Assembly: GCA_031581365.1 (NCBI GenBank)
Contig: JAVLBI010000006.1
Span: 1,858 to 65,857 of the forward strand
Source: Spiribacter sp.
GTDB lineage: Bacteria; Pseudomonadota; Gammaproteobacteria; Nitrococcales; Nitrococcaceae
Direction of reading: 5' to 3'
Length of the DNA: 64,000 nucleotides
Both the position numbers and the translations under genes were made by a program. The number at the start of each line of letters is the position of its first letter. Positions within the stretch are counted from its first letter, which is position 1. Positions 13,680 to 63,422 of this stretch are shown here, in pieces. Below the pieces are notes generated by a model, which was not told the DNA's origin, did no database searches, and saw only the letters and a list, made by a program, of their open reading frames with translations.

Positions 13680-14398
13680 GTGGCTTATTCGAGACTTGGG
13701 TCTATTTAGCCGAACAACCCCTACTGTGGCTAACGCTAACCGTCGGGGCTTACGCCATTGCTTATCATTTATTTATGCTGACCCAAGGCTTTGCCCTGCT
13801 TAATCCGGTGTTAGTGGCTATTTTAATGATTGTGGCAACGCTCATGATCACCGAGACCGATTACGCTACCTATTTTGAAGGCGCGCAGTTTGTCCACTTT
13901 CTACTGGGGCCCGCAACGGTCCTACTCGCTGTTCCCCTAGTGGCTCAAGCCCAACGCCTTCGGCGTCAGTGGCTGCCGTTGAGCATTGCCCTGATCGCCG
14001 GCTCAGCCAGTGCAATCGTGAGTGCGCTGGTGATCGGTCGAGTGCTCGGACTCAAAGCCGATGTGGTGGCCTCGCTCCTACCCAAATCAGCCACCACCCC
14101 CATTGCGATGGCAGTAGCCGAGCAAATAGGCGGACAGCCATCACTCACTGCGGTATTGGTCATACTAACGGGGATTACCGGCGCCATTGCGGGTGTGCCT
14201 ATGCTAAGGGCGCTTGGCGAGCGTGACCCGGATATTAAGGGCTTTGCCACCGGTGTTGCCGCGCATGGCATCGCCACAGCCCGGGCCTTTCAGCACAGCG
14301 AACGCGCCGGTGCTTACGCCGGTTTAGGCATGGGCCTTAATGCAGCGCTCACCGCCTTACTAGTGCCGTTAATTGCTTGGCTCGCGGGATTGTATTAA
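13676..14398 (+). CDS. LrgB/CidB family membrane protein
   Basis: LLNPVLVA, LLGPATVLLAVPL, SLLPKSATTPIAM, ATGVAAHGIATARA. Confidence 0.92.
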   Translation: MSGLFETWVYLAEQPLLWLTLTVGAYAIAYHLFMLTQGFALLNPVLVAILMIVATLMITETDYATYFEGAQFVHFLLGPATVLLAVPLVAQAQRLRRQWLPLSIALIAGSASAIVSALVIGRVLGLKADVVASLLPKSATTPIAMAVAEQIGGQPSLTAVLVILTGITGAIAGVPMLRALGERDPDIKGFATGVAAHGIATARAFQHSERAGAYAGLGMGLNAALTALLVPLIAWLAGLY

Positions 14399-14415
14399 AT
14401 CAAAGGAGACCCTCA

Positions 14416-17851: not shown

Positions 17852-17854
17852 GGA

Positions 17855-20422: not shown

Positions 20423-20445
20423 AATGACTCCCTAAATCGGTGGGC

Positions 20446-21714
20446 TTAGACCTCTAGCAGCAATCGCGCTGGGTCTTCGAGCATGTCTTTAATCGTGACG
20501 AGAAATTGCACAGCCTCTTTACCATCAATAATTCGATGGTCGTAGGAGTGCGCCAAATACATCATTGGCCGTACGATCACTTGACCGTTCTCTACCATCG
20601 GCCGTTCCTGAATTTTATGCATGCCCAAAATCCCGCTTTGTGGGGGATTAAGAATAGGGGTAGAGAGCAGCGAGCCAAAAATCCCGCCGTTGGTGATCGT
20701 AAACGTACCGCCGGTTAATTCATCAATACCAATCTTGCCGGCTTGGGCACGTTCACCAAAATCCGCGATGCCTGATTCAATCTCAGCAAATGAGCGCTGA
20801 TCAGCATCCCGCAGCACCGGCACCATCAAGCCACGCTCACTCGATACGGCAATGCCCACATCATAATAGCCGTGATAGAGAATATCGCTGCCATCAATTG
20901 AGGCATTCACCGCTGGATAGCGCTTAAGGGCCTCAACCGCTGCTTTCACAAAAAACGACATAAAGCCAAGCTTCGTGTCATGGGATTTTAAAAACTGCTC
21001 CTTATAACGCGCCCGCAAGTCCATTACCGGTTGCATGTTCACTTCGTTAAAGGTGGTGAGCATGGCGGCCGTTTGCTGCGCTTCGACTAATCGCTCCGCA
21101 ATGCGCTGGCGTAGCCGTGTCATCGGCACACGCCGCTCTTCACGATCCTCAACGCCAGCACCAGTGGCTGGCACAGTCGCTGCACCACTAGGCGTTGCCG
21201 CGGGGGCAGGTGCGGGCGCAGGCGCAGGGCTCGGTGCAGTGGCGGCTTTTTCGACAAACTGCAAGACATCCGCTTTGAGCAAGCGCCCATTGCGCCCGGT
21301 GGCCGGGATCTGGCGCGGGTCAACCTCATGCGATTCAACTAAATGGCGAACGGCCGGACTAAGCGGCGGCATGGCAGCATTGGCTGGACTATCCGCTGCC
21401 GGCTTACTTACCACCGCCGGCGGCTCAGCTGCTTGATCAGGTTTGGCAGATTCGCCAGCGGGTGCCGCCGCGAGAGCGCCCGCATCAAGCATGGCAACGA
21501 TCTCGCCGGCCGTTACCGTTTCACCTTCGGCTTTTAGAATTTCGCCTAGCACGCCATCATCAGGGGCAGGCACTTCAAGGACCACCTTATCGGTTTCTAA
21601 ATCGACGAGATTTTCATCTCGCTCCACCGCCTCGCCGGCCTGCTTATGCCAGGTAACAACCGTTGCCTCACTGACCGACTCGGGTAGTGCTGGGACCTTG
21701 ACTTCGGTGCTCAT
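20446..21714 (-). CDS. sucB: Dihydrolipoamide succinyltransferase (E2o)
   Basis: Lipoyl motif [10 protein letters not shown], Ala/Pro linkers, [21 protein letters not shown]. Confidence 0.97.
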
Positions 21715-21734
21715 CAGCGCCTCGCTCTTTGACT

Positions 21735-47676: not shown

Positions 47677-50358
47677 ATGGCAGCAAGAATGAAGCCCATG
47701 CCCATTCCTGGCGATCCGGATCCAGAAGAGACTCAGGAGTGGCTCGAAGCTATCGAATCGGTTCTCGCATACGAGGGGCCGGAGCGTGCGCAGTTTTTGC
47801 TCGAGCGCCTCGTCGACACCACCCGCCGCCGTGGGGGCCAACTCCCGTTTAAAGCGACGACGGCCTATCAAAACACGATTCCCACTCAGCATGAGGTCCC
47901 ACATCCAGGTGATCGCGCGCTCGAGTCCCGCATTCGATCAATTATTCGCTGGAATGCCATGGCAATGGTGGTCCAAGCCAACCGTGATCGTGATGGTATT
48001 GGTGGCCACATTGCCTCGTTCGCTTCGTCTGCAACGCTCTATGAAATTGGCTTTAATCATTTCTGGCACGCGCCCACAGAAGATCACGGTGGCGATCTTG
48101 TCTTTATTCAAGGGCATTCCGCGCCCGGCATTTACGCCCGCGCCTTTCTTGAAGGCCGCTTAAATGAACAAGACCTGCACAATTTTCGCGCCGACCTGGC
48201 AAAGACTGGCAAACCGTTATCGTCCTATCCTCACCCGTGGTTAATGCCCGATTTCTGGCAGCTTCCTACGGTCTCGATGGGGCTTGGCCCCATTATGGGC
48301 GTCTATCAAGCGCGCTTTTTAAAATATCTGCATAACCGCGGCATCGCCGATACCTCAAATCGCAAGGTTTGGGTATTTTGTGGCGATGGCGAAATGGATG
48401 AGCCCGAGAGCTTGGGCGCCATCGGCGTGGCGGCACGTGAAGGCCTGGATAACCTTATTTTCGTCGTCAACTGCAACCTCCAACGCCTTGATGGACCCGT
48501 CCGTGGCAACGGCAAAATTATCCAAGAGCTTGAGGGTGAATTCCGCGGCGCTGGCTGGAATGCGATTAAGGTCATTTGGGGCGCTTACTGGGATCCATTG
48601 CTCGCCAAAGATACCAACGGACTGCTGCGCCGGCGCATGGAAGAAGCCGTGGATGGCGAGTATCAGAACTTCAAAGCGAAAGGCGGCGCCTACACGCGTG
48701 AGCACTTTTTTGGGAAATATCCCGAGCTAAAAGCCATGGTCGCGAACATGTCCGATGAGGATATCTGGCGTTTGAACCGCGGTGGCCATGACTCAAACAA
48801 GGTCTATAACGCCTATAAAGCAGCGACTGAGCATAAGGGCCAGCCCACCGTTATTTTGGCAAAAACGGTTAAAGGCTATGGCATGGGTGAGTCTGGCGAG
48901 GGCCAGAACATCACGCATCAGCAAAAGAAAATGGCAGAAAACGCGCTCAAGGAATTCCGCGATCGCTTCCATATTCCGGTTCCCGATGAAAAAGTCGCTG
49001 ACGCGCCTTTCTACAAACCGGCTGATGATTCACCAGAAATTCAGTACTTGCGGGAACGCCGCGAGGCCCTCGGCGGTTCTTTGCCAAAACGCAAGGTCAC
49101 AGCTAAAGCCCTCAAAGCACCTGATCTATCCGCATTTGACGTATTACTCAAAGACAGTGGCGAGCGCGAAATGTCCACAACGATGGCCTATGTTCGCGCA
49201 CTCTCCATTATCGCGCGCGATAAAACACTGGCCCCGCGGCTCGTTCCGATTGTTCCCGATGAAGCACGCACCTTTGGCATGGAGGGCTTGTTTCGCCAAA
49301 TTGGTATTTATGCCCACGACGGCCAGCTCTATGAGCCACAAGATGCCGATCAGTTGATGTACTACCGCGAAGACCAAAAAGGTCAGATTCTACAAGAGGG
49401 CATCAATGAAGCGGGCGCCATGTCGAGCTGGATTGCTGCGGCAACCGCTTACGCTAATCATGGCGTTGAGATGATTCCGTTCTATGCCTATTACTCAATG
49501 TTTGGCTTCCAGCGTGTTGGTGACTTGGCCTGGGCGGCTGGCGATATGCGAGCGAAGGGCTTTTTAATGGGTGGCACCGCAGGCCGCACCACGCTGAACG
49601 GCGAGGGCTTACAGCACGAAGACGGCCACAGCCACCTGCAAAGCGCCACCATCCCAAATTGCATTTCCTACGACCCCACATTCGCTTATGAAATGGCCGT
49701 CATCATTCAAGATGGCATGCGGCGGATGTACCAGGAGCAAGAATCCGTTTTCTACTACATCACCATGATGAATGAAAACTATCACCAGCCTGCGATGCCG
49801 AAAGGCGCCGAAGAGGGTATCCGTCGCGGCATGTATTTGCTGCAAAAAGGCGGCCGTGGCAAAAAACGCGTCCAGCTCATGGGGTCTGGCACCATTTTAA
49901 TTGAGGTGATGGCCGCCGCGGAGCTGCTCAAATCGGATTGGGGCATCGATAGCGATGTTTGGAGCTGTCCTAGCTTTACCGAGTTGCGCCGCGATGGCAT
50001 TGAGTGTGAGCGCTGGAATTTGCTGCATCCACAAGACCAACCTCGGGTCCCCTATGTCCGCCAATGCCTTGAGGGCCATGAAGGCCCTGCGGTGGCGTCA
50101 ACTGACTACATGCGGGCTTTCCCGGACCAGATTCGTCCTTACCTCGATCGCACCTTTGCAGTGCTGGGCACGGATGGCTACGGCCGCTCTGATACACGCG
50201 AGAACCTGCGTCGCTTCTTTGAGATTGATCGCCACTACGTAACGCTCGCGGCACTCAAAGCGCTGGCCGATGACGGCGTCATCAAACCTGATCAAGTCAG
50301 CAAGGCCATCGCCAAATACAACATCGACATCGACGCGCCCAACCCAAGCACCGTCTAA
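47677..50358 (+). CDS. aceE: Pyruvate dehydrogenase E1, homodimeric type
   Basis: DPDPEETQEWLEA, GGHIASFASSATL, QGHSAPGIYARAFLEGRL, GDGEMDEPES, NCNLQRLDGPV. Confidence 0.98.
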   Translation: MAARMKPMPIPGDPDPEETQEWLEAIESVLAYEGPERAQFLLERLVDTTRRRGGQLPFKATTAYQNTIPTQHEVPHPGDRALESRIRSIIRWNAMAMVVQANRDRDGIGGHIASFASSATLYEIGFNHFWHAPTEDHGGDLVFIQGHSAPGIYARAFLEGRLNEQDLHNFRADLAKTGKPLSSYPHPWLMPDFWQLPTVSMGLGPIMGVYQARFLKYLHNRGIADTSNRKVWVFCGDGEMDEPESLGAIGVAAREGLDNLIFVVNCNLQRLDGPVRGNGKIIQELEGEFRGAGWNAIKVIWGAYWDPLLAKDTNGLLRRRMEEAVDGEYQNFKAKGGAYTREHFFGKYPELKAMVANMSDEDIWRLNRGGHDSNKVYNAYKAATEHKGQPTVILAKTVKGYGMGESGEGQNITHQQKKMAENALKEFRDRFHIPVPDEKVADAPFYKPADDSPEIQYLRERREALGGSLPKRKVTAKALKAPDLSAFDVLLKDSGEREMSTTMAYVRALSIIARDKTLAPRLVPIVPDEARTFGMEGLFRQIGIYAHDGQLYEPQDADQLMYYREDQKGQILQEGINEAGAMSSWIAAATAYANHGVEMIPFYAYYSMFGFQRVGDLAWAAGDMRAKGFLMGGTAGRTTLNGEGLQHEDGHSHLQSATIPNCISYDPTFAYEMAVIIQDGMRRMYQEQESVFYYITMMNENYHQPAMPKGAEEGIRRGMYLLQKGGRGKKRVQLMGSGTILIEVMAAAELLKSDWGIDSDVWSCPSFTELRRDGIECERWNLLHPQDQPRVPYVRQCLEGHEGPAVASTDYMRAFPDQIRPYLDRTFAVLGTDGYGRSDTRENLRRFFEIDRHYVTLAALKALADDGVIKPDQVSKAIAKYNIDIDAPNPSTV

Positions 50359-50382
50359 GGCTTGGGCGCAGGAGGAATTTGC

Positions 50383-51705
50383 GTGGCAGAGGTCAAAGAA
50401 ATCACCGTCCCAGACATTGGCGATTTTGATGCGGTGGACGTCATTGAAGTATTGGTCGGCCCTGGCGATCGCGTCGAGGCCGAAGACTCGCTGATTACGC
50501 TTGAGAGCGACAAGGCAACCATGGAAGTGCCCGCTCCCTTCGGCGGTGTCATCAAAGAGATATTGATCAAGCCCGGCGATAAGGTCGCAGAGGGCACAAC
50601 GGTCGCACAGGTGGAAGTGAGCGACGATGCGGCGGCTCAATTCGCTGCTGAGCCTGAACAAGCACCGGAACCAGAAAAAACGACGCCAGCTCCTGAGCCG
50701 GCTGAACCGCCTGAGCCGACTGAACCCGTCCAAGCCGCAGTACCCGCCGCCACGACAGCTGCACAAACCCCGCTGAATGCTGACACGCAACGCTTAGCGC
50801 ATGCCGGGCCATCGGTACGGCGCTTTGCGCGTGAGCTTGGAGTTGCCTTGGATCAAGTCAGCGGTAGTGGCCCTAAAGGCCGAATCACCCGCGAAGATGT
50901 GCAGGCCGTTGTCAAATCGGTAATGGACTCGGGCGGTGTTGCGCCCGCCGCAGCAGCAACCGGCAGTGCCGGCATCCCAGCGATTCCTGAGGTGGATTTC
51001 AGCAAGTTTGGGCCGGTGGAAGAAATCGACTTACCGCGCATTAAACGCCTATCTGGCCCGCATCTTCATCGCAGCTGGTTAAACATCCCGCATGTCACTC
51101 AGTTTGATGAAGCTGATATCACTGAACTTGAGGCCTTTCGCAAGGAGCAAAAAACCGCGGCAGAAAATGCCGGCGTTAAGCTCACACCCCTTGCGTTTAT
51201 GGTGAAAGCCGCTGCCGCAGCGCTAACTGAATTTCCTGATTTCAATAGCTCGCTACGTCGTGATGAGGCGGCTCTGATTCGCAAGCACTACATCAACATT
51301 GGCGTTGCTGTCGACACCCCCCAAGGCTTAGTCGTACCGGTCATCAAAAATGCCGACCAAAAGGGCCTATATGCGATCGCCGCTGACTTAAGCGAACTCT
51401 CAACGAAGGCTCGTGATGGCAAACTGGGGCCTAGCGAAATGCAAGGCGGAACGTTTAGTATTTCAAGCCTTGGCGGCATTGGTGGTACGGCATTCACGCC
51501 CATTATCAATGCGCCTGAAGTCGCCATATTGGGCATTTCAAAATCATCAATGAAACCCATTTGGAATGGGAGTGAGTTTGCACCGCGGCTTATGCTGCCG
51601 CTGAGCCTGTCTTACGACCACCGGGTGATTGATGGCGCCGCAGCCGCTCGCTTTAGCGCCTACTTAACCGGCGTATTGAGTGATTTGCGCCGCCTTATCC
51701 TCTAA
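50383..51705 (+). CDS. aceF: Dihydrolipoamide acetyltransferase (E2p) with a single lipoyl domain
   Basis: VPDIGDFD...[36 protein letters not shown]; GTG 50383 after GGAGGA. Confidence 0.96.
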
Positions 51706-51725
51706 CGCTCAAAGGATCGCGATTC

Positions 51726-53489
51726 ATGTCACAAGCCAAAGAAGTCCGCGTCCCCGACATTGGTGACTTTGATGCGGTGGAAATCATTGAAGTGCTCGTG
51801 GCCCCCGGCGACTCAATTGAAGCCGAGGCATCGCTGATTACGCTTGAGAGCGATAAGGCGACCATGGAAGTGCCTGCGCCGTTTAATGGCATCATTGAGA
51901 CACTCAAGGTGAACGTCGGCGATAAGGTTGCCGAAGGCGATATTATTGCCACCGCCGTGCCCGAAGAGGCTAGCGATACCACAGAAACGCACGCGAGCGA
52001 CCAAAGCAGCGCACCCACAGAACCCTCTGCTGCTAGCGAAAAAGCACCCACGGCCTCAGCAGAATCAGCACCCGCCGATGCCGACTGCGATGTGGTGGTT
52101 ATCGGGGCTGGTCCCGGAGGTTATAGCGCGGCTTTTCGTGCCGCTGACCTAGGCTTAAAAACGATCCTCATCGAGCGCTTCCCTAATTTGGGCGGCGTTT
52201 GCTTGAATGTCGGCTGCATCCCTTCTAAAGCGCTTTTGCATGCAGCAAAGGTCATCGATGAGGCGGAATCTTTTGCGGATCACGGCATCAAATTTGGTAA
52301 GCCAAAAATTGATCTAAAAAAGCTTGAGGCATGGAAATCTAGCGTTGTGGGCAAGCTCACCGGCGGCCTAGTCGGTCTTGCCAAGCAGCGTGACGTTGAG
52401 GTCATTACCGGCCCCGCTCAGTTTGTTGATGACTATCACCTTAAAGTCACAACCAAGGATGGTGAGCGCAGCATTACCTTTGCTAATGCCATTATCGCGG
52501 CGGGCTCACGTCCGGTCGCCCCCCCTGGGTTCGACCTTGACCACCCCCGGATCATGGATTCCACCGACGCCCTTGAGCTTGAGGAAATCCCCAAACGCCT
52601 GTTAGTGGTCGGTGGCGGTATTATTGGTCTAGAGATGGCATCGGTCTATCACGCCCTAGGCAGCGAGATTAGCGTGGTTGAACTTGCTGATCGCGTGATG
52701 GCCGGTGCCGATCCGGATATCGTTAAGCCGTATAAGAAATTGATCGATAAGCGCTATGCCAATGTCTTTCTCAACACCAAAGTGGCCGCAGTAAAACCCG
52801 ATGACAAAGGCGTAACGGTTGCGCTGGAAGGCGATAAAGCACCGGCTGAAGATCGCTTTGATCGGGTTTTAGTCTCGGTGGGCCGACGGCCTAATACCGA
52901 TTTACTTAACCTTGAGGCCACGGGAGTCAGCATGCTCGATAACGGCTGTATACAAGCCGATGCGCAAATGCGGACCCACATCCCACATATTTTTGCAATT
53001 GGCGACTTAATCGGCCAGCCGATGCTCGCGCACAAAGCGGTTCATGAGGGCAAAGTCGCCGCGGAGGTCGCTGCCGGCGAAAAGAGTGCGTTTGATGCCC
53101 GCGTTATTCCCTCCGTTGCCTATACCGACCCTGAAGTGGCGTGGGTTGGGGTAACCCAAGAGCAGGCCAAGGCTGACGGCCTAGATGTTGAGATTGCGAG
53201 CTTCCCTTGGGCCGCTAATGGCCGCTCGTTGGCGATAGGCCGTGATGAGGGCATTACCAAGCTCATCTTTGATCGTGACACCGAGCAAGTGGTTGGCGCC
53301 GGCATTATCGGACCAAACGCCGGTGATTTGATCGCCGAAGTCGGCCTTGCCATTGAGATGGGCGCCGACATGCACGATATTGGCTTAACAATCCACCCGC
53401 ACCCGACGCTCTCGGAGACGGTGGGAATGGCAGCCGAAGCGGCGGCTGGCACACTAACGGATCTCTACATTCCAAAGAAAAAACGCTGA
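51726..53489 (+). CDS. lpdA: Dihydrolipoamide dehydrogenase with an N-terminal lipoyl domain
   Basis: Lipoyl domain ([11 protein letters not shown]), linker, [30 protein letters not shown]. Confidence 0.96.
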
Positions 53490-53495
53490 GGTGAC

Positions 53496-54512
53496 ATGAG
53501 CAGAACCGCGACCGTTGTTGCCACAGGGCGCTGCCTTCCAGAGCGCCTTGTCAGTAACGACGAGCTGCGTGAGCGTTTTGCTCGCCACGAGCGCCCTGAG
53601 CTCATTGACCGCTTTGAGGAAAACTCGGGCATTAAACAGCGCTACTGGGCCGCCCCTGGCACCACCACATCCGACTTGGCGGCCACCGCTGCCAAGCAAG
53701 CGCTTGAACGCGCGAACTGCCAAGCGAGCGACCTTGATTTAATTATTCTTGGCACCGATACGCCCGATCAAATCACGCCCGCTACAAGCGTGATCTTACA
53801 AGAAAAATTGGGTGCCAAGGCCGCGGGCACCTTCGATGTCAGCTGCGCCTGCGCCTCTTTCCCAACCGCGCTTGCCAGTGCCGCCGGCCTCATCCAAACC
53901 AACCCCACGCTCAATCGCGTATTAGTCGTCGGGGCGTATTTAATGCATCGTCTGGCGGATGCTAATGATCCGATGCTGTTTTTTTATGGTGATGGCGCTG
54001 GGGCTGCCATTGTCGAGGCAAAAACCAACGCCCCCGGCCTATGCGCAAGCGCCTTTCTAGCGAATGGCGCTTATGCCAATTATTGGGGGATTACCGCGGG
54101 AGGCGCGCGTGAGCCCGCGAGTCATGCAGCGGTAACGGCCGGCCGCACCCAAGTCCACCTTGAAAAGCGTTATCCACCAGAACTCAACGAATTGGAATGG
54201 CCAAAACTCATGCATCGCTTAGCAAAGCAAGGCGAGTTCGAAATGGCTGATATTGATTTGGCCATATTCACCCAAGTCAACGCACAGAGTATTCAGCAAG
54301 TATGTGAGTCATTAGCGATCCCGAGCGAACGGGCGCCTAAGCTCATGGATCGCTACGGCTACACTGGCTCGGCTTGCGTCCCAATCGCGCTGGATCATGC
54401 CATCACAAGCGCTCAGGTGAGCGGCGGCGAGTTAGTCACACTGATTGGCTCTGGCGTAGGCTATAACATGGCAGGTGTAGCGTTTCGTCTGCCTGAGGAG
54501 ATGCCCGCATGA
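53496..54512 (+). CDS. KAS III (FabH)-fold protein with a non-canonical active site
   Basis: ATGRCLPERLVSN, GIKQRY, TDTPDQITPATS, FDVSCACASF, YGDGAGAA; FTQVN and YGYTGSA at the HQAN and GNTS positions. Confidence 0.85.
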   Translation: MSRTATVVATGRCLPERLVSNDELRERFARHERPELIDRFEENSGIKQRYWAAPGTTTSDLAATAAKQALERANCQASDLDLIILGTDTPDQITPATSVILQEKLGAKAAGTFDVSCACASFPTALASAAGLIQTNPTLNRVLVVGAYLMHRLADANDPMLFFYGDGAGAAIVEAKTNAPGLCASAFLANGAYANYWGITAGGAREPASHAAVTAGRTQVHLEKRYPPELNELEWPKLMHRLAKQGEFEMADIDLAIFTQVNAQSIQQVCESLAIPSERAPKLMDRYGYTGSACVPIALDHAITSAQVSGGELVTLIGSGVGYNMAGVAFRLPEEMPA

Positions 54513-57500
54513 GACAGGCCGACCCCCGTCGCAGTCAGCATTTAAATGCCTTGCTAGAGCGCGCGCAGGAACGCTGGCCAGCTGCTGAGGCGCCGCTTAT
54601 TAAGGATTTTTTATCTCATTACTATGCTGCGGTTGCGACCGAGGATTTTGCGAGCGCAGAGATTGCGAACCTCTACGGCGCAGCACTCTCACATTGCTCT
54701 CTCGGCGAACGCCGCGGGCCAGGCAAAACGGCCGTTAACGTTTACAACCCAGACCCAGAGCAAAACGGCTGGGAGTCAACCCACAGCGTAGTGCAAATTG
54801 TTACTGACGATCGACCGTTTTTAGTCGACTCACTGTCGATGGCCATTAACGAGCTTGGGGTTATGATCCATCTCATCATCCACCCGGTGCTGGAGGTCGC
54901 ACGCAATAAGCGCCACAAGATAACCGACGTTGGCGATCAGACAGCAGCGCATGGCGAGCCAGAGGCGTGGATTCATCTAGAAGTCGATCGCCAAAGCAAT
55001 GCGAAGCAACTTAAAGCGCTTAAAACACGCATTAACGCCTGTCTTAATGATGTCGAAGTCGCGGTCAATGACTGGCCGGCGATGCAAGCCCAAGCAAAAG
55101 ACGCCTTAGATGGCTTACGCCAACATCCAGCGGGCGCTAACGATGAGCATTGGCAGGAAATCGAGGCATTTTTGGAATGGCTACTTGATGATCATTTCAC
55201 CTTCCTTGGTTATCGTTGCTACGACGTACACCAGCGCAAAGGCCAAATCGAGCTGACCTCAGTTGATGAGACTGGCCTTGGTTTGCTGCGCACCGAGGGC
55301 AATGGCGCACAAGCATCTAAAAGCTTTCAGGCGCTGCCAGCAGCCTTACGCGAACAGGCACTTGATCCTGATCCACTTGTGCTCACTAAATCGAGCCATC
55401 GCTCAACGGTCCATCGCCGCGGCTATATGGATAGCGTTGGGATTAAGCGCTTTAACAAGAAAGGCAAAGTGATTGGCGAGCATCGCTTTTTAGGGCTGTT
55501 TACCTCCGGCGCGTATAGCCGCAACCCGCGCATTATTCCGCTGCTACGACGCAAGCTTGATGCGGTCTTAACGCGTGCCGGCTTACGCGCCAATAGCCAT
55601 GCTGGCAAAGCGCTCGCGCATATTCTCGAAACCTACCCACGCGATGAACTTTTCCAAATTGACTCGGACACGCTGCATCACAATGCCATTGGTATTTTGC
55701 AGCTCCAGGAGCGCCAACAAGTCCGCTTGTTCTTGCGCTATGACCGCTTTGGCCGTTTTGTCTCGTGTCTGGTGTACGCCCCGCGTGATCGCTACGACAC
55801 CGCGGTACGACAGCGCATGCAAGCTATTCTCACAGAGGCCTTTGATGGCGCTCACTCAGAATTTACTGTCCAGCTCTCAGAAGCGGTCTTAGCCCGCATT
55901 CATTTTATTATCCACTTTAGCGAAAACGCTGATCGGCAGGTGGATGCGGCTGAACTTGAGGCACAGCTTGCTGCCACCACCCGCTCTTGGCCTGATGATC
56001 TTGCCTATGCACTAATTGAGCATTGTGGCGAAGCACGGGGTAATCAGTTACATCACCGCTATGGCGAAGCGTTCAGCGCGGCTTACCGTGAAGACACCAC
56101 CCCACGGAATGCCGCCCAAGATATTGAGCGCTTAGAGTCACTGCCTCAGCATGCGGGCTTGGTGATTAGCCTGTATCGACCGCTTGAAGCGCCTAAGGGG
56201 AGTTTGCGCCTAAAGCTCTATCACGCCGGCGAGTCAATTAGCTTATCCGAGGTGTTGCCCGTGCTTGAGCACATGGGTGTGCGGGTGGTGGATGAACGGC
56301 CCTATGCCATTCGGCCACGACAGGATGAGCCTTGCTGGATTCATGACTTTGGCCTAGAACACGACCCCGACCTAGCGCTTGATGCCGGCCGGCTGCGGGA
56401 TGCCTTCCAACAAGCATTTGCCGCCATTTGGCGCGGCGAAACCGATGATGATGGCTTTAACCGACTGATCTTAATGGCCGGCCTTGAATGGCGTGAAATC
56501 GTTATTTTGCGCGCTTACGCCCAGTACCTTCGACAGGCAGGCACGGGCTATAGCCAGCCCTATATGGAAGACACCCTTGCCGCCAATCCAAAGATTGCGG
56601 CAGCGCTGGTCGCGCTTTTCGAACAGCGACTTCATCCTGACAAAGCGAATGAACCATCAGCGAAGCAAACGGTAAGCGAACTAGAAACTGAACTCGATGC
56701 CGTTGCAAGCCTAGATGAAGATCGCATCTTACGGCGCATACTAGCGGCTATTCTTGCCACGCTGCGTACCAACTATTACCGGGTTAATGAGGCAGGTGAA
56801 GCGCGAGATTTTGTCTCATTTAAGCTCCAACCAGATAGCATCCCCGGCGTGCCCAAACCGGTTCCCGCTTATGAAATCTTTATAAGCTCACCGCGTGTAG
56901 AGGGCGTCCACCTTCGCGGCGGAAAAGTCGCTCGTGGCGGACTCCGCTGGTCGGATCGGCGCGAGGATTATCGCACCGAAATTCTCGGGCTTATGAAAGC
57001 GCAAATGGTTAAAAATGCGCTCATCGTCCCCGTTGGAGCCAAAGGCGGTTTTGTTTGTAAACAACTCCCCCGAGATCGCAGCGAACAGCCCCAAGAGGTG
57101 CTTGCGTGTTACCGCCTCTTTATTAGCGGACTATTAGATCTCACCGACAATATTGTTGATGCCAAAGTCATGCCGCCGCCACAGGTGATTCGGCATGATG
57201 GCGATGACCCGTATCTTGTGGTCGCCGCGGATAAGGGCACAGCGACCTTTTCTGACGAAGCCAATGCGCTCGCCGAGGCGTATCACTTTTGGTTACATGA
57301 CGCTTTCGCCTCTGGCGGTTCAACGGGCTATGATCACAAAAAAATGGGGATTACCGCCCGCGGTGCGTGGGTGGCGGTTCAGCGTCATTTCCGTGAGCTT
57401 GGCCGCGATATTCAGCATGAGCCATTTACCGCTGTTGGTATTGGTGACATGTCAGGTGATGTATTTGGCAACGGCATGCTGCAGTCTCGCAGCACGCGTT

Positions 57501-59341
57501 TAGTAGCGGCTTTTGACCATCGACATATCTTTATTGACCCCAACCCCGATGCCGAGCGCAGTTATGCCGAGCGTGAGCGGTTGTTTTCATTAAACCGCTC
57601 GAGCTGGGACGATTATGATGCGGGCGTCATCTCTGAGGGCGGCGGAATATGGCCGCGCAGCGCAAAATCCATTCGCCTGTCAGCGAACGCCCAAGCCGCC
57701 CTTGGTATTAACAGCGAACGCCTAACGCCAATTGAGCTCATTAGCGCAATTTTGTGCGCACCGGTTGATCTGCTCTGGAATGGCGGGATTGGCACGTATA
57801 TTAAGGCAGCACAAGAAAGCCACGCCGATGTTGGTGATAAAGGCAACGATAACCTCCGCGTCGATGCCGAAGCGCTTCGCTGTCAGGTCATAGGCGAGGG
57901 CGGCAATCTAGGCGTCACACCACTGGGCCGCATCGCTTTTGCACTCACCGGTGGCAAAGTGAATAGTGATGCAATTGATAACTCAGGCGGCGTGGATTGC
58001 TCCGACCATGAGGTCAATATCAAAATTCTCATGAACGGCGTCGTTGATGACGGTGATTTAACGGTCAAACAGCGCAATCGTCTTTTAGCCGACATGACCG
58101 ATGCAGTCGCTGATCATGTCTTGGCCAATAATTACCGCCAAACGCAAGGCTTAAGCCTAATGGTAGAGCGTTCGGCCGGACAGATTACCGAGCAAACTCG
58201 CTACATGCGTTTACTCGAGCGCGCCGGGCGGCTTGATCGCGCGGTTGAACAACTGCCCGATGACGAAACACTCGCCGAGCGCCAACAACAGGGCCTTGGG
58301 CTTGCGCGTCCTGAACTCTCAATCGTCTTAGCCTATGCCAAGATACATAGCTTTGAGCAGCTGCTTGAATCCGATTTAGTCGACGGCGAAGAAAATCTTG
58401 CCGATTTGCTGAGCTACTTTCCGCAACCATTGCGTGAGCGATTTAGCGCACGAATCGACTGCCATCCGCTACGGCGTGAAATAATCGCCACGAATCTGGC
58501 CAATCACATTCTCAATCGCATGGGCGCGACCTTTTTAATGCGTATGACAGAGACAACCGGTGCCAGCTTGGCCGAAGTGGCTCGGGCCTATCTGGCGGCG
58601 CGCGATATCTATGCACTCCGCACACTATGGCACCAAGTGGATGCCCTCGATAATCAAATCGATGCCGCCCACCAGTATCAGCTTCTAAGTGCGCTTTGCG
58701 AGCTCCAAGAGCGCGCCACTCTATGGTTATTGCGCCGCCAAACTGGCCCAATTGCGGCGCCAGCGGATATTGCCTCGCGGCATACCGCCATAGAAACGCT
58801 TGAGCGTGCCTTGCCCACGCTATTATCAGCATCGGATCATGCCCGGCTTCAAGCAAAACAAGACAAACATCAGGCCGCCGGCGTTCCCGAGGCACTCGCA
58901 TCACACATTAGCCGATTGCCGAGTTTGTATTTGGCGTTGGATATTAGTGAAGCCGCGCAAAATAGCATGGCCAAACTCGAAGATGCTGCCCGCGTGCATT
59001 TCGGCGCCGCCGAGGTGCTGGGCTTGGGGGGGTATCGTGAGCTGCTCAACACCTTCACTCCGGCGGATGATTGGCAGGCGCGTTATCGCGATGGCCTATT
59101 AGAGGCGTTGCATGATGAACAACGTCATCTCACGCAAACTATCCTGGCCGAGACCCCTGGCGACGATCCAGACCAATGCCTTAATGCTTGGGCCGAGCAA
59201 CAGGCTGAGCGCATTGAGCCGTTTCGGCAAACCGTGGAGCAAGTCTGCGCTGCCGCCCAGCCCGACACCGCCATGCTCGGCGTTGTTATGCAGCAACTCC
59301 AACAATTGGCCACTAGCCCATCGGCTGAGTTATCCGCATGA
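54509..59341 (+). CDS. gdhB: Large NAD-specific glutamate dehydrogenase
   Basis: 1610 aa; GVHLRGGKVARGGLRWSDR, KNALIVPVGAKGGF, VVAADKGTATFSD, GYDHKKMGITARGAW, GIGDMSGDVFGNG. Confidence 0.95.
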   Translation: MRQADPRRSQHLNALLERAQERWPAAEAPLIKDFLSHYYAAVATEDFASAEIANLYGAALSHCSLGERRGPGKTAVNVYNPDPEQNGWESTHSVVQIVTDDRPFLVDSLSMAINELGVMIHLIIHPVLEVARNKRHKITDVGDQTAAHGEPEAWIHLEVDRQSNAKQLKALKTRINACLNDVEVAVNDWPAMQAQAKDALDGLRQHPAGANDEHWQEIEAFLEWLLDDHFTFLGYRCYDVHQRKGQIELTSVDETGLGLLRTEGNGAQASKSFQALPAALREQALDPDPLVLTKSSHRSTVHRRGYMDSVGIKRFNKKGKVIGEHRFLGLFTSGAYSRNPRIIPLLRRKLDAVLTRAGLRANSHAGKALAHILETYPRDELFQIDSDTLHHNAIGILQLQERQQVRLFLRYDRFGRFVSCLVYAPRDRYDTAVRQRMQAILTEAFDGAHSEFTVQLSEAVLARIHFIIHFSENADRQVDAAELEAQLAATTRSWPDDLAYALIEHCGEARGNQLHHRYGEAFSAAYREDTTPRNAAQDIERLESLPQHAGLVISLYRPLEAPKGSLRLKLYHAGESISLSEVLPVLEHMGVRVVDERPYAIRPRQDEPCWIHDFGLEHDPDLALDAGRLRDAFQQAFAAIWRGETDDDGFNRLILMAGLEWREIVILRAYAQYLRQAGTGYSQPYMEDTLAANPKIAAALVALFEQRLHPDKANEPSAKQTVSELETELDAVASLDEDRILRRILAAILATLRTNYYRVNEAGEARDFVSFKLQPDSIPGVPKPVPAYEIFISSPRVEGVHLRGGKVARGGLRWSDRREDYRTEILGLMKAQMVKNALIVPVGAKGGFVCKQLPRDRSEQPQEVLACYRLFISGLLDLTDNIVDAKVMPPPQVIRHDGDDPYLVVAADKGTATFSDEANALAEAYHFWLHDAFASGGSTGYDHKKMGITARGAWVAVQRHFRELGRDIQHEPFTAVGIGDMSGDVFGNGMLQSRSTRLVAAFDHRHIFIDPNPDAERSYAERERLFSLNRSSWDDYDAGVISEGGGIWPRSAKSIRLSANAQAALGINSERLTPIELISAILCAPVDLLWNGGIGTYIKAAQESHADVGDKGNDNLRVDAEALRCQVIGEGGNLGVTPLGRIAFALTGGKVNSDAIDNSGGVDCSDHEVNIKILMNGVVDDGDLTVKQRNRLLADMTDAVADHVLANNYRQTQGLSLMVERSAGQITEQTRYMRLLERAGRLDRAVEQLPDDETLAERQQQGLGLARPELSIVLAYAKIHSFEQLLESDLVDGEENLADLLSYFPQPLRERFSARIDCHPLRREIIATNLANHILNRMGATFLMRMTETTGASLAEVARAYLAARDIYALRTLWHQVDALDNQIDAAHQYQLLSALCELQERATLWLLRRQTGPIAAPADIASRHTAIETLERALPTLLSASDHARLQAKQDKHQAAGVPEALASHISRLPSLYLALDISEAAQNSMAKLEDAARVHFGAAEVLGLGGYRELLNTFTPADDWQARYRDGLLEALHDEQRHLTQTILAETPGDDPDQCLNAWAEQQAERIEPFRQTVEQVCAAAQPDTAMLGVVMQQLQQLATSPSAELSA

Positions 59342-60138
59342 GTGAAACCGTCCCTCTCGCTCATCAAATCAGTGGCGATGACGCTGCGCCGGCATTGGTG
59401 TTTTTGCACGGGCTATATGGTGCCGGCAATAATTGGCGTGGTATTACGCCCGCATTTATAACCGCCTACCAAGTAATCTTGCCAGATTTACGCAGCCACG
59501 GCCGCTCGCCGCATCACCCGCGGATGGACTACCGTGATATGGCTGCTGATGTTGTGGCGCTATTGCAAGCCAAGGGGATTACCAAGGCCCATGTAGTCGG
59601 ACATAGCATGGGCGGTAAAGTAGCAATGGCAATGGCTTTAACCGCTCCTGATCGAGTGGCTAAACTTGCAGTGGTGGACATCGCACCAATCGCCTATGAC
59701 CACGCGCATGAGCATGGCGGTATTATTCAAGCGATGGAGACCATGGACTTAGCCTCGTTGCGAGATCGTCGTGATGCCGATGCCGCGCTTGCCAAAGACA
59801 TTGCTGAGCCAGTGGTGCGGCAATTTTTGCTCACCAACCTAGAGCACAGCAATGAAGGCTGGCAGTGGCGGTTGCCGCTTTCGATTTTGGCTGATCAACT
59901 CGGCGTTCTAGAGGGCTGGCCAACGATGACGGCCGCCGCCTGGCAGGGAAACGCCTATTTTATGTATGGCGGGGCATCAGACTATGTGGAGGATGAGGGT
60001 CGTCGGGCCATAAAAACGTTTTTCCCGACGGCTGAACTGGAATGCTTTAACGAAGCTGGGCACTGGGTACACGCCGAAGCTAGGGCAGACTTTACCCAAC
60101 GACTCAGCGAGTTTTTAGCAAAAGACAATAAAAACTGA
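59338..60138 (+). CDS. YbfF/ABHD11-type alpha/beta hydrolase (esterase/thioesterase)
   Basis: FLHGLYGAGNNW, PDLRSHGRSPH, GHSMGGKVAM nucleophile elbow, VVDIAP, RQFLLTNL, AGHWVHAE. Confidence 0.85.
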   Translation: MSETVPLAHQISGDDAAPALVFLHGLYGAGNNWRGITPAFITAYQVILPDLRSHGRSPHHPRMDYRDMAADVVALLQAKGITKAHVVGHSMGGKVAMAMALTAPDRVAKLAVVDIAPIAYDHAHEHGGIIQAMETMDLASLRDRRDADAALAKDIAEPVVRQFLLTNLEHSNEGWQWRLPLSILADQLGVLEGWPTMTAAAWQGNAYFMYGGASDYVEDEGRRAIKTFFPTAELECFNEAGHWVHAEARADFTQRLSEFLAKDNKN

Positions 60139-60156
60139 GCAAAGGAACACAGACCC

Positions 60157-62448
60157 ATGGCAGAGGATTTTAAACACAGCGCGCTGGAATACCACCGTTA
60201 TCCCACGCCCGGCAAAATAGAAGTCGCTCCGACAAAACCGCTAGCCAACCAGCGTGATTTAGCGCTGGCCTACAGCCCCGGCGTGGCAGCGGCTTGCGAG
60301 GCGATTGCTGAGGATGAGCGTGAAGCTGCCAATTTAACGGCTCGCGGTAATTTGGTGGGCGTAATTACCAACGGCACCGCCGTGCTTGGCCTAGGCGCCA
60401 TTGGCCCGCTCGCCTCCAAGCCGGTCATGGAAGGTAAGGGTGTGTTGTTTAAAAAGTTTGCCGGCATCGATGTGTTCGATATTGAAATCAATGAAACCGA
60501 TGCCGATAAACTCGTTGAGACCATTGCTCGGCTTGAGCCTACGTTTGGTGGTATCAACCTCGAGGACATTAAGGCGCCCGAGTGCTTTGAAGTCGAAGCG
60601 AAGCTGCGCGAGCGCATGAATATCCCCGTATTTCATGATGACCAGCATGGCACGGCAATTACGGCAGCAGCGGCGATCTACAATGGCTTACGTCTCGTTG
60701 GCAAGCGTTTTGAGGAGGTAAAACTCGTAACCTCAGGCGCCGGCGCCTCAGCGGTGGCCTGCCTTGATTTGCTCGTCTCAATGGGCCTAAAACCTGAGAA
60801 CATCATCGTTACTGACCGCCAAGGCGTCATCTATAAGGGCCGCACAGAATACATGGATGAGCGCAAAGGCGTTTATGCCGCCGATACCGACGCCCGCACA
60901 TTAGCTGATGCGCTACCCGGAGCAGATATCTTTCTTGGTTTATCCGCCCCCGGTGTGCTGAGTGGCGAAATGGTTGCCAGCATGGCGGATAAACCCATGA
61001 TCATGGCACTTGCCAACCCAACGCCAGAAATTTGGCCGGAGGATGCACTCGCGGCAAAACCTGATGCGATCATCTCAACAGGGCGCTCGGATTACCCCAA
61101 TCAAGTCAATAATGTGCTCTGTTTTCCGTTCATTTTCCGTGGTGCATTGGATGTGGGCGCAACCACCATTAATGACGAAATGAAAAAGGCCTGCGTGCGT
61201 GCCATTGCCGATTTGGCCACACTCGAGTCATCCGATGTTGTGGTCGCGGCCTACGGCGGCAAACCTCTGTCCTTTGGTGCCGATTACCTCATTCCTAAGC
61301 CCTTTGATCCGCGCTTAATTACCCGCATTGCGCCCGAAGTAGCCCGCGCCGCCATGGAAAGTGGTGTTGCCACCCGGCCTATTACCGATTTCATTGCCTA
61401 CCGCCGACGTCTATCGGATTATGTCTTCCAGTCAGGCCTGCTGATGAAGCCGCTTTTTGAGCGCGCTAGCCAGAACCCCAAACGCGTGGTTTACGGAGAT
61501 GGTGAGGATGAGCGGATACTTCAAGCCATCCAGGTGGTCATCGACGATAGCCTAGCCAAGCCCATTATTATTGGCCGTCGGCGTGTCGTCGAAATGCGCG
61601 TTAAGCGCTTAGGTCTGCGGCTGAACCTGGAAACGGATCTTGAGTTAGTCGACCCCGAGGATGACCCCCGCTTTAAAGCGTACTGGCAGCTCTACCACTC
61701 GCTTATGGAGCGGCGCGGCGTCAGTCCTGATCGTGCGCGGCAAATTGTACGCACCCGCAACACGGTCATTGCCGCATTAATGGTCCGCCGTGGCGAAGCC
61801 GATGCGGTGCTATCTGGCGCCATTGGTAAGTACCACCGGCATCTGGATTACGTGAATGAAGTACTAGGACGGCGTACGGGCGTACGTAACTTAGCAGCAA
61901 TGAACGCCATTATTTCACCCAAGGGGACACTGTTTTTATGTGACACCTATGTCAACCAAGACCCCAGTGCTCATCAAATTGCAGAAATGACCGTGCTTGC
62001 GGCTGATGAAATCCGCCGCTTTGGTATGGAGCCAAAAGTAGCACTGCTCTCGCATAGCAACTTCGGTAGTTCAGATGCACAAGATGCGATAAAGATGCGT
62101 GAGGCCCTGCAGCTTATTCAAGACCGTGACTCCAGTCTTGAAGTCGATGGTGAGATGCACGGCGATGCCGCGCTCAATGAAGAAATTCGTCGACGTATTT
62201 TCCCCAACTCACACCTCGAGGGACAAGCGAATCTGCTGATCATGCCCACGCTAGATGCCGCAAATATTGCCTTTAACCTGCTAAAAACGGTCACTGATGC
62301 CGTGTCCATCGGGCCCATTACACTTGGCATGTCGAGGCCCGCGCATATCCTGACACCCTCGGTTACCGTTCGCGGCGTGGTTAACCTGACAGCACTTGCC
62401 TGTGTAGAGGCGGCGATGGCTGAAGATAAAGAGGAAAAAACACCATGA
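60157..62448 (+). CDS. maeB: NADP-dependent malic enzyme with a PTA-like C-terminal domain
   Basis: [64 protein letters not shown]. Confidence 0.96.
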
Positions 62449-63422
62449 CTGAGGCGATATGTGTTCACGCATTTGGCGGACCTGAAGCACTAAAACAGGA
62501 AACAATCGAGGTTGGCGAGCCTGGCCCTGGCCAAATTCGTCTGCGCCAGACCCATATTGGTGTTAACTACATCGATGTTTATTTTCGTAATGGTGTGTAT
62601 CAGCCGGCAGCCATGCCGTTTACACCTGGCGTAGAGGCGGCTGGCGAGATCACTGCCGTCGGCGCGGGCGTTAGCGGTCTCAAATGCGGCCAACGTGTCG
62701 CTTATGCGGCCCGGCCGCCAGGCGCTTACACGAGTGATCGGGTGATCGCTGCCGATAGTGTAGTGGCCTTGCCCGATGAACTCTCCAATGCCCAAGCCGC
62801 CGCCATGATGCTCAAAGGCATGACCGCTTATATGTTGCTCGCGCAGGTGTATACCGTACGCGCTGGCGATAGCGTGCTCATCCATGCTGCAGCTGGCGGT
62901 GTTGGGCTAATTGCTTGCCAATGGGCTCGGCATCTTGGCGCGACCGTTATTGGGACGGTGGGCAGCGCTGAAAAAGCTGAGCTTGCCAAAGCCCATGGTT
63001 GTCATCATCCCATTCTCTATCGCGACGAAGCCCTCGTTGAGCGGGTTAACGCGATTACTAAGGGCGCTGGCGTCGCCGCGGTCTACGATTCAGTGGGCGC
63101 CGATACGCTAAAAGATTCTCTAGCCTGCTTAGCTCGCCGCGGCATGTTAGTGAGCTTTGGTCAGTCCTCGGGCAAACCACCTGCGATTGAAGTCGGTGAG
63201 CTTGCCGCTGGCGGTTCGCTATTTCTAACTCGACCGACGCTTTTTGATTACATTAACGAGCCAGCCGCATTACAGGCGTCAGCCAACGCCTTATTTGAAG
63301 TGGTTCGCGCTGGTGCGGTCAATATTTGTGTAGGGGGCGAATGGCCACTGGCTCAGGCCGCTGATGCGCACCGCGCCCTCGAAGCCCGGCAAACGACCGG
63401 GTCATCTTTGTTGGTGGTCTAG
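62445..63422 (+). CDS. qor: NADPH:quinone oxidoreductase (zeta-crystallin family)
   Basis: GVNYIDVYFRNG, LIHAAAGGVG, VSFGQSSG, GSLFLTRPTL, RQTTGS. Confidence 0.92.
   Translation: MTEAICVHAFGGPEALKQETIEVGEPGPGQIRLRQTHIGVNYIDVYFRNGVYQPAAMPFTPGVEAAGEITAVGAGVSGLKCGQRVAYAARPPGAYTSDRVIAADSVVALPDELSNAQAAAMMLKGMTAYMLLAQVYTVRAGDSVLIHAAAGGVGLIACQWARHLGATVIGTVGSAEKAELAKAHGCHHPILYRDEALVERVNAITKGAGVAAVYDSVGADTLKDSLACLARRGMLVSFGQSSGKPPAIEVGELAAGGSLFLTRPTLFDYINEPAALQASANALFEVVRAGAVNICVGGEWPLAQAADAHRALEARQTTGSSLLVV

Follow-up and report, generated by a model that had tools for sequence, protein, structure and literature searches.

The stretch of DNA analysed here is a 64,000-nucleotide (64-kb) segment of a Spiribacter sp. 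genome (assembly GCA_031581365.1, contig JAVLBI010000006.1, positions 1,858 to 65,857), to which we refer throughout as the window. It carries a gene for a relative of β-ketoacyl-acyl carrier protein (ACP) synthase III (KAS III), the family to which the fatty-acid initiator FabH belongs. The protein keeps the nucleophilic cysteine of FabH and has threonine and tyrosine in place of the catalytic histidine-asparagine pair. The same residues recur throughout a group of bacterial and archaeal proteins, here called the T/Y clade, and, judged from sequence comparison, the gene is best explained as encoding a functional enzyme of this distinct and widespread KAS III subclade.

The KAS III gene and its position in the window

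The gene is an intact open reading frame (ORF) as read from its ATG to its TGA. A gap of 6 nt separates it from the end of lpdA and holds a Shine-Dalgarno-like GAGGTGA motif, which overlaps the lpdA stop codon and presumably acts as the ribosome-binding site; at the other end, the TGA overlaps the ATG of gdhB (at 54509) by 4 nt, in the form ATGA. An initial annotation, made from the letters of the window without database searches, had described a full-length ORF lying 6 nt after lpdA and overlapping gdhB, and had located the codons for the cysteine, threonine and tyrosine; every one of these coordinates is correct (Table 1).

The pyruvate dehydrogenase (PDH) genes aceE, aceF and lpdA lie directly upstream, and the 587-residue product of this lpdA has its own N-terminal lipoyl domain. 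Intergenic distances are 3 nt between aceE and aceF, 20 nt between aceF and lpdA and 18 nt between the esterase gene and maeB, and 4-nt overlaps like that between the KAS gene and gdhB recur at gdhB/esterase and at maeB/quinone oxidoreductase. These eight co-directional genes of central metabolism (47677-63422, plus strand) stand in the same order across Spiribacter loci L001-L009, an arrangement that suggests one long unit of transcription and translation from aceE to the quinone oxidoreductase gene. Promoter- and terminator-like matches between 47 and 64 kb showed no excess over shuffled controls and so give no evidence for or against internal signals. A tblastn search of the window with Escherichia coli FabH, FabD, FabG, AcpP and PlsX as queries (E<=1e-3) matched this ORF only, in keeping with the earlier statement that no fab or acp gene is nearby; PKS (polyketide synthase) genes, likewise said to be missing, were found in none of the neighbourhoods examined. 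Approximately 20 runs of metagenomic DNA, covering salt-lake, lake and soil samples, contain the locus, and none of its words was found in the single metatranscriptome listed.

Table 1. Coordinates of the KAS III gene, its active-site codons and the adjoining features of the window
Feature	Positions	Strand	Basis
KAS III-fold gene of the T/Y clade, 338 aa, ATG to TGA	53496..54512	+	ORF, Pfam, AlphaFold2 and Foldseek, signature residues
GAT, Asp88, clade-specific acidic residue, proposed general base	53757..53759	+	Asp in at least 95% of 248 members
TGC, Cys119 (DVSCACASF), nucleophile, equivalent to FabH Cys112	53850..53852	+	Cys in 248/248 members
TAT, Tyr148	53937..53939	+	Tyr in at least 95% of 248 members; Glu/Asp in 90/92 canonical representatives
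ACC, Thr259 (IFTQVN), at FabH His244	54270..54272	+	Thr in 234/248 members
TAC, Tyr289 (YGYTGSA), at FabH Asn274	54360..54362	+	Tyr in 248/248 members
TGC, Cys294, at FabH Ser279, co-varies with Thr259	54375..54377	+	clade versus canonical alignment
TCT, Ser319, at FabH Phe304	54450..54452	+	clade versus canonical alignment
GAGGTGA, Shine-Dalgarno-like motif overlapping the lpdA stop, just 5' of the ATG	53488..53494	+	direct reading
PDH genes directly upstream: aceE 47677-50358, aceF 50362-51705, lpdA 51726-53489	47677..53489	+	Pfam
Co-directional downstream genes: gdhB 54509-59341, YbfF-like esterase 59338-60138, maeB 60157-62448, quinone oxidoreductase 62445-63422	54509..63422	+	ORFs, Pfam

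Fold and active-site residues

Both Pfam domains of the family are recognised above their cut-offs in the window protein (ACP_syn_III, 58.3 bits; ACP_syn_III_C, 80.1 bits), with Thiolase_N below threshold (24.7 against 26.4). An AlphaFold2 model (pLDDT, the predicted local distance difference test score, of 86.6; pTM, the predicted template modelling score, of 0.88) matched FabH structures in Foldseek with template modelling (TM) scores of 0.86-0.90 at 24-31% identity, and as modelled the protein has the KAS III fold, as had been proposed. Its best sequence and structure matches are to FabH (31% identity), represented by the E. coli enzyme and by Burkholderia xenovorans 4DFE; it shares with these the domain pair, the length, a nucleophilic Cys at the N-terminus of the same helix, the Gln that follows the His position, and the GDGAGA and G-x-G loops. 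The NCBIfam fabH models are nevertheless missed (NF006829, 206.3 against a cut-off of 249; TIGR00747, 179 against 292.1). Models of 3-hydroxy-3-methylglutaryl-CoA (HMG-CoA) synthase fit less well still, with 57.3 against 244 for NF003274, 35.3 against 360 for TIGR01835 and no match to HMG_CoA_synt in Pfam. In the databases the protein is annotated as ketoacyl-ACP synthase III; by sequence and fold it does fall within a broadly defined KAS III family, but it fails the features that define FabH itself (EC 2.3.1.180).

We compared residues between 248 clade members, consisting of 120 close homologues and 128 more distant sequences, and 92 canonical representatives. The residue equivalences hold in three independent alignments, including phmmer alignments to PDB entries, which pair Thr259 with the His of PHQAN and Tyr289 with the Asn of GNTSAA, and a MAFFT alignment with E. 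coli FabH (sequence from NC_000913), which equates C112 with C119, H244 with T259 and N274 with Y289. All 120 close homologues carry Cys119, Thr259, Gln260, Tyr289 and Cys294; among the more distant members, Cys and Tyr are each present in 128/128 and Thr259 in 114/128. The histidine and asparagine occur in 92 of the 112 full-length representatives of the nearest clusters. The annotated change from His-Asn to Thr-Tyr beside a retained Cys is therefore borne out by the whole clade, with Cys and Tyr invariant and Thr in all but a minority of members (Table 1).

While the initial annotation was right about Thr259 and Tyr289, it missed four further co-ordinated substitutions, at Asp88, Tyr148, Cys294 and Ser319. 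Position 88 is Ser, Thr, Val or Cys in canonical KAS III proteins and acidic in 0/92 representatives; position 150 is Met in the T/Y clade and Leu or another residue in canonical proteins. At some 40 positions 95% or more of the 248 sequences agree, and the window protein has the entire clade signature (Asp88, Cys119, Tyr148, Met150, Asn231, Trp235-Pro236, Thr259-Gln260, Tyr289-x-Gly-Ser-Ala-Cys294 and Ser319); its pattern CCYMTQNYTGCSVYN is found in 39 other members also. The active site thus appears rebuilt, with Asp88/Cys119/Tyr148/Thr259/Tyr289/Cys294/Ser319 set against Thr-Ser/Cys/Glu-Asp/His/Asn/Ser/Phe in canonical enzymes, and on these alignments the substitutions at FabH catalytic positions are a clade signature and not chance. 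Positions 259 and 294 seem to be coupled, because the 14 members of the 248 with Asn259 have Ser294 without exception (14/14). The same 14 sequences also have Ala290, Ala321 and Phe323, forming a sub-clade with a second variant site.

Differences from FabH extend beyond the catalytic pair. Relative to the E. coli enzyme they comprise His244Thr, Asn274Tyr, Phe304Ser, Ser279Cys, Thr81Asp and Phe87Thr, together with Tyr in place of Glu/Asp at window position 148. The equivalent of FabH Phe87 is Thr or Ser throughout the clade, and F87T mutants of FabH reportedly have a more open acyl channel. In place of the Met207-Phe213 segment, which in FabH lines the pantetheine (CoA) tunnel, the clade has an insert of its own that contains RYPPxxNxxxWP, in a region that is poorly modelled by AlphaFold2 (pLDDT 53-70 for residues ~190-230). 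Arg249 of E. coli FabH, which we take to be an ACP-docking residue, has been lost, its equivalent being Gln264 in the window protein, Pro in most core-family members and otherwise Ala, Glu or Gly; the equivalents of Lys256/257 are not conserved and become Glu/Ser.

Distribution, selection and gene neighbourhoods of the T/Y clade

In the protein database the clade is represented by no fewer than 120 clusters (57-100% identity), drawn chiefly from Acidobacteriota and also from Spiribacter and Alkalilimnicola, and a scan of species-representative genomes returned more than 573 loci. The core family forms one cluster (P0056) in a library clustered at 50% identity. A wider tier at 35-41% identity keeps the same residue signature, and canonical His/Asn proteins appear only at ~30-37%. 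This wider tier includes Thermotogae, Caldisericia, Chloroflexi, Nitrospirae and Saprospiraceae among Bacteria, and among Archaea Thermofilum and Infirmifilum (Thermofilaceae), Sulfolobales, Thaumarchaeota and the Asgard Njord- and Odinarchaeota. A review describes archaeal fatty-acid synthesis as independent of ACP (PMC3533463). Searches of the PDB by whole protein, by fold and by C-terminal motif found no structure of a clade member, all five matches listed by the motif search showing His/Asn, and full-text literature searches found no description of the clade. It would appear, from sequence, to be a new, large, phylogenetically broad and mis-annotated KAS III subfamily, distinguished by a novel set of catalytic residues and by its conserved operon. 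One contig binned as 'Methanomassiliicoccales archaeon' (L025) carries a core-family gene with 57% identity to the query, compared with 56-61% for acidobacterial loci, and has the same hydrolase and ligase neighbours as the latter; mis-binning of the contig or a recent transfer is the probable explanation.

The KAS gene is under purifying selection. Against Spiribacter orthologues its non-synonymous divergence (dN) is 0.23-0.27 with synonymous divergence (dS) saturated (>2), which is the same range as gdhB, and dN/dS is ~0.1, again like gdhB. Relaxed selection had been named beforehand as the mark of a dead enzyme; the comparison with gdhB shows no relaxation and that refutation of the initial annotation fails.

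These results bear on the simplest account of the gene, namely that it encodes either an ordinary FabH initiating fatty-acid synthesis or an inactive scaffold, which we consider very improbable in both forms. The database annotation and the KAS III fold are what an ordinary FabH would show. With the fabH cut-offs missed, both His244 and Asn274 replaced, the ACP-docking Arg lost and clade members in archaea, a canonical fatty-acid initiator is very unlikely, as the initial annotation had concluded; furthermore, the gene lies outside any fab cluster in the window, and no fab cluster was seen in ~170 related loci. A pseudoenzyme is contradicted by the invariance of Cys119, by the conservation of ~40 positions among the 248 members and by dN/dS. 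The known scaffold PhlA, from a thiolase/DUF35 complex, lacks both the Cys and the Glu of active enzymes (PMC6392133). A PhlA-like role was examined and rejected, given that the T/Y clade keeps its Cys, has an acid at the Glu position and adjoins DUF35 genes in 5 loci only.

Neighbouring genes were counted within 6 kb on the same strand, for 84 loci of the core family and for 59 loci of the wider clade with at least 3 kb of flank. An α/β-hydrolase gene accompanies KAS in 72/84 core and 42/59 wider loci, and a CoA-activating enzyme in 64/84 (AMP-ligase) and 39/59 (ligase or CoA-transferase). Short-chain dehydrogenase/reductase (SDR) genes are found in 61/84 (FabG-like) and 18/59, transporters in 53/84 (TonB-dependent receptor) and 37/59 (ATP-binding cassette (ABC) transporter or receptor), TetR regulators in 42/84 and 13/59, and thiolases in 35/84 (SCPx-type) and 7/59. 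MaoC hot-dog genes occur near KAS in 14 loci.

In Acidobacteriota the operon consists of genes for TetR, a TonB-dependent receptor, a FabG-like SDR, KAS, a membrane-anchored α/β-hydrolase, an AMP-binding acyl-CoA ligase, an SCPx-type thiolase and a further hydrolase, and its order is shuffled in some genomes. In the wider clade an ABC importer of the LIV (leucine-isoleucine-valine) type replaces the TonB-dependent receptor. Thermofilaceae have a ligase, two hydrolases, an ABC transporter, KAS and a binding protein; Sulfolobales an ABC transporter, KAS, a CoA-transferase, a hydrolase, a thiolase and an SDR; Thermotogae a CoA-transferase, an SDR, an ABC transporter with a permease-hydrolase fusion, and KAS; and Nitrospirae KAS, a hydrolase, an SDR, TetR, an ABC transporter and a ligase. 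In one Thermotogaceae contig (L091:5331-7004) the ABC permease is fused to the α/β-hydrolase in a protein of 557 aa whose stop codon overlaps the KAS start. Another protein, P0121 (412 aa), joins the N-terminal part of a KAS to the C-terminal part of a hydrolase, and could be a real fusion or an artefact of assembly or gene calling.

The partners are themselves coherent. Single linkage places 40 of the 41 hydrolases adjacent to KAS in one family with the acidobacterial ABH3 and ABH7, and the G-x-S-x-G serine elbow is present in 36 of 45 KAS-neighbour hydrolases. Neighbouring SDRs score above the cut-off of the FabG equivalog model, the ligase is most similar to fatty-acyl- and feruloyl-CoA synthetases and to FadD13, and the associated binding protein is of generic LIV type. 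Three Burkholderiales loci have, in order, a 3-hydroxybutyrate dehydrogenase (370.6 bits against a cut-off of 258), a protein of ~209 aa without Pfam or NCBIfam match (U26; L039:6083-6712, L015, L058), a hydrolase and KAS; U26 and the hydrolase also adjoin KAS in one Ectothiorhodospiraceae genome (U26 at L018:4177-4788). This neighbour set suggests a module for the uptake and processing of carboxylic acids or esters, for example (R)-3-hydroxyalkanoates. The window's own hydrolase (59338-60138) was considered as a displaced member of the set and rejected, for it lies outside the single-linkage partner family; its best NCBIfam match is the YbfF esterase PRK10673 (196 bits, below the cut-off of 399).

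The association with PDH has a different distribution. KAS follows lpdA, and aceE-aceF-lpdA stand upstream in the same order, in every one of the 13 Ectothiorhodospiraceae loci for which upstream sequence exists; these loci come from Spiribacter, Alkalilimnicola, Aquisalimonadaceae and strain WFHF3C12. None of the other ~130 loci has 2-oxoacid dehydrogenase genes beside KAS; a lone E3-like match outside the family, at L101, was dismissed as a disulfide oxidoreductase beside a nitroreductase and DUF4438. The mapping of homologue neighbourhoods that had been recommended thus restricts the PDH context to Ectothiorhodospiraceae and reveals elsewhere a conserved context of hydrolase, CoA activation, SDR and importer. 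A PDH-coupled enzyme, taking acetyl groups from the acetyl-dihydrolipoyl domains of E2/E3 or handling lipoate or octanoate, would account for the strict lpdA-KAS order and for an E3 with a lipoyl domain of its own, but with synteny limited to one bacterial family we regard it as a very remote prospect, and the acyl-lipoyl donor suggested in the initial annotation finds no evidence across the clade. Among the collected sequences, P0219 (485 aa) combines an N-terminal lipoyl domain (ETNKA motif), an E3-binding-like segment and a KAS III domain with canonical Cys/His/Asn, resembling an E2 in which the acyltransferase core is replaced by a ketosynthase. It demonstrates that lipoyl-KAS III combinations exist, but its canonical site places it in a different clade.

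Proposed function and alternatives

Residue sets of the thiolase superfamily map to reaction types (Cys-His-Asn, Cys-His-His, Cys-His-Cys and Glu-Cys-His), and the closest parallel to Asp88 is found in HMG-CoA synthase. In an hhalign comparison with the Enterococcus faecalis enzyme MvaS (query identical to PDB 1X9E; Glu79-Cys111-His233), GT-D-T of the window protein falls on GT-E79-S and Cys119 on Cys111, with a probability of 96.6%. The Glu-Cys-His triad is accordingly represented by Asp88, Cys119 and, at the His233 position, Thr259, that is, with two of three residues chemically matched. Cys and Glu are the key residues of Claisen condensation of this type, and the archaeal HMG-CoA synthase complex has thiolase and DUF35 partners (PMC6392133); SCPx-type thiolase and DUF35 genes adjoin the T/Y KAS in some loci. 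Although the two proteins are of one superfamily and would both use CoA rather than ACP substrates, the window protein has Asp for Glu and Thr for His and on the whole resembles FabH far more closely. The 'YTGS' and 'GSG' motifs that it has in common with HMG-CoA synthase were discarded as a further link, the ungapped FabH alignment putting Tyr289 at Asn274, and hhalign sets Ser319 on an HMG-CoA synthase Tyr and not on its Ser307.

We conclude that the window protein is probably no FabH but an enzyme that works on acyl-CoA or 3-ketoacyl-CoA independently of ACP. More tentatively, and as a plausible proposal that still falls short of probable, it may make or cleave 3-ketoacyl-CoA without decarboxylation, through an acyl-Cys119 and with Asp88 as base. 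Its substrates would be CoA thioesters rather than ACP thioesters, and an acyl-CoA (acetyl-CoA in Spiribacter) would acylate Cys119. The hydroxyls of Thr259 and Tyr289 could stand in for His and Asn as hydrogen-bond donors to the thioester or enolate oxygen, while Asp88, which aligns with the HMG-CoA synthase catalytic Glu79, would serve as general base. The C2-C3 bond of a 3-ketoacyl-CoA might then be made or broken by thiolase-, HMG-CoA synthase- or OleA-type chemistry on a FabH scaffold. In the module, the hydrolase would split an ester or oligomer, for example of an (R)-3-hydroxyalkanoate, the acid would be taken up by the importer and converted to its CoA ester by the ligase, and an R-type dehydrogenase would yield the 3-ketoacyl-CoA that KAS cleaves. 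In Spiribacter the gene would have moved behind aceE-aceF-lpdA, where co-expression with a source of acetyl-CoA is probable, and the likely reaction would be the interconversion of two acetyl-CoA with acetoacetyl-CoA and CoA. In most wider-clade loci KAS is the sole thiolase-superfamily gene and stands beside a CoA-activating enzyme and a dehydrogenase for 3-hydroxyacyl compounds or 3-hydroxybutyrate, and this 'pathway hole' favours a thiolase-like step.

The strongest competitor to 3-ketoacyl-CoA chemistry dispenses with C-C bonds altogether. As an acyltransferase or thioesterase, the enzyme would take an acyl group from acyl-CoA onto Cys119 and hand it on to water or to an acceptor (O, N or S), Asp88 or Tyr289 activating the acceptor; we think this possible but rather doubtful. 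KAS III-fold acyltransferases do exist, as in ChlB3 (PMC9573744) and CerJ (PDB). Retention of the nucleophile and loss of the decarboxylation pair are as expected for such an enzyme, an Asp could equally well activate water or an acceptor, and an acyl-CoA ligase and a serine hydrolase, as constant neighbours, would fit an ester-making and ester-breaking pair. Nonetheless, similarity to the known examples is marginal and confined to the C-terminal part (CerJ, E=0.22; ChlB3, E=0.098), the FabG-type or 3-hydroxybutyrate dehydrogenase, MaoC and thiolase/DUF35 neighbours indicate 3-keto/3-hydroxy thioester chemistry, and an acid at the Glu position of HMG-CoA synthase is characteristic of enolate-forming enzymes. 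In addition, acyltransferases of this fold presumably retain the His (Cys/Ser-His-Asp), as we take CerJ, ChlB6 and DpsC to do, and the T/Y clade does not; these three, offered as analogues in the initial annotation, are hence not close models. CerJ, ChlB3/ChlB6 and DpsC resemble the proposed enzyme in a KAS III fold that operates through an acyl-Cys or acyl-Ser intermediate without decarboxylative condensation, but they are located in polyketide gene clusters. Asp88, by lying on the catalytic Glu, makes enolate C-C bond chemistry at least as likely as simple acyl transfer. Of the earlier suggestion of an acyl-transfer or non-decarboxylating enzyme, the non-decarboxylative, CoA-based part is still the best reading.

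Decarboxylation could also be retained in altered form. An enzyme like the acetoacetyl-CoA synthase NphT7 would condense acyl-CoA with malonyl-CoA to 3-ketoacyl-CoA and CO2, with Thr259/Tyr289 as an alternative oxyanion hole, and the clade's overall proximity to true FabH enzymes and the frequently adjoining FabG-like reductase would agree with this; two hydroxyl donors could in principle stabilise the enolate. However, no acetyl-CoA carboxylase or other malonyl-supplying or malonyl-transfer gene was seen in ~170 neighbourhoods, the importers, TetR regulators and hydrolases suggest catabolism, and a base at Asp88 would be superfluous to a decarboxylative mechanism. To our knowledge, condensing enzymes that decarboxylate otherwise always have a His-Asn or His-His pair, and we judge such an activity unlikely here.

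Two other systems invite comparison with the proposed CoA-based enzyme. OleA, which catalyses a head-to-head Claisen condensation without decarboxylation, has a KAS III-like fold and uses two acyl-CoAs with a carboxylate base, but its similarity to the window protein covers only residues 38-144 (E ~1e-9), and it presumably keeps Cys-His-Asn and draws its Glu from the partner subunit. OleB is, we assume, dehalogenase-like with an Asp nucleophile, whereas the clade hydrolases are mostly of the serine type, the SDRs are classical FabG/BdhA proteins, and importers and TetR regulators are present. An Ole-like olefin or β-lactone module was set aside on these differences, even though the same four enzyme families are involved, the α/β-hydrolase, AMP-binding enzyme and SDR of the clade matching OleBCD in family. 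Biosynthetic and degradative thiolases (Cys-His-Cys) belong to the same superfamily, and the likeness lies in the proposed non-decarboxylative (retro-)Claisen chemistry on CoA thioesters and in the two conserved cysteines of the clade; they differ in subfamily and topology details, and their base Cys occupies another position than Cys294. On residues and alignments, the T/Y enzyme is likely to be mechanistically closer to HMG-CoA synthase, OleA or thiolase than to FabH, and yet a member of none of them.

Several observations weigh against the making or cleavage of 3-ketoacyl-CoA as the function. Many loci, especially in Acidobacteriota, also encode a thiolase, beside which a second thiolase-like activity would look redundant. 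The neighbourhood fits synthesis and cleavage alike, and also acyl transfer or hydrolysis, and the Thr and Tyr hydroxyls could in principle support malonyl decarboxylation. The lining of the pocket near Cys119 by Asp88, Tyr148 and Cys294 is a prediction from alignment. Finally, the window lacks the usual partners (ligase, SDR and family-type hydrolase), which may be encoded elsewhere in the genome, so that any role in Spiribacter is extrapolated from relatives with 55-60% (core) or 35-45% (wider clade) identity.

Hundreds to thousands of clade proteins are labelled 'ketoacyl-ACP synthase III', very probably wrongly, and the label skews reconstructed lipid metabolism, in particular that of Acidobacteriota and of archaea thought to be without ACP-based fatty-acid synthesis. 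A conserved Asp-Cys-Thr-Tyr set would add a new entry to the residue sets of the superfamily and a scaffold for engineering non-decarboxylative C-C bond formation, and the conserved operon opens directly to experiment a pathway of uptake and catabolism in microbes that abound in soil and hot springs. Both the residue set and the archaeal distribution would surprise a specialist, and the hypothesis is testable by standard enzymology. At its most far-reaching, and as speculation that we would not expect to hold in full, the T/Y clade might be a new catalytic class of the thiolase superfamily, with an Asp-Cys-Tyr/Thr site on a FabH scaffold, performing ACP-independent, non-decarboxylative C-C chemistry in Bacteria and Archaea; it might also mark a hitherto overlooked but very widespread module in which importer, serine hydrolase, CoA ligase, R-type dehydrogenase and KAS together allow the use of 3-hydroxyalkanoate or lipid-derived acids, or else provide the condensing enzyme that is missing from the CoA-based fatty-acid metabolism of archaea without ACP.

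Elsewhere in the window, a 393-aa ORF at 10292-11476 (minus strand) is without Pfam match and a 405-aa ORF at 14377-15594 (plus strand) has only a weak match to DUF4139. A second, ordinary lpd (472 aa) is part of a sucA-sucB-lpd cluster on the minus strand (19001-24572), directly downstream of which are a gene for a 371-aa protein of the citrate synthase family and a PrpD/MmgE gene (16403-18973, minus strand); these two may be genes of the methylcitrate cycle.

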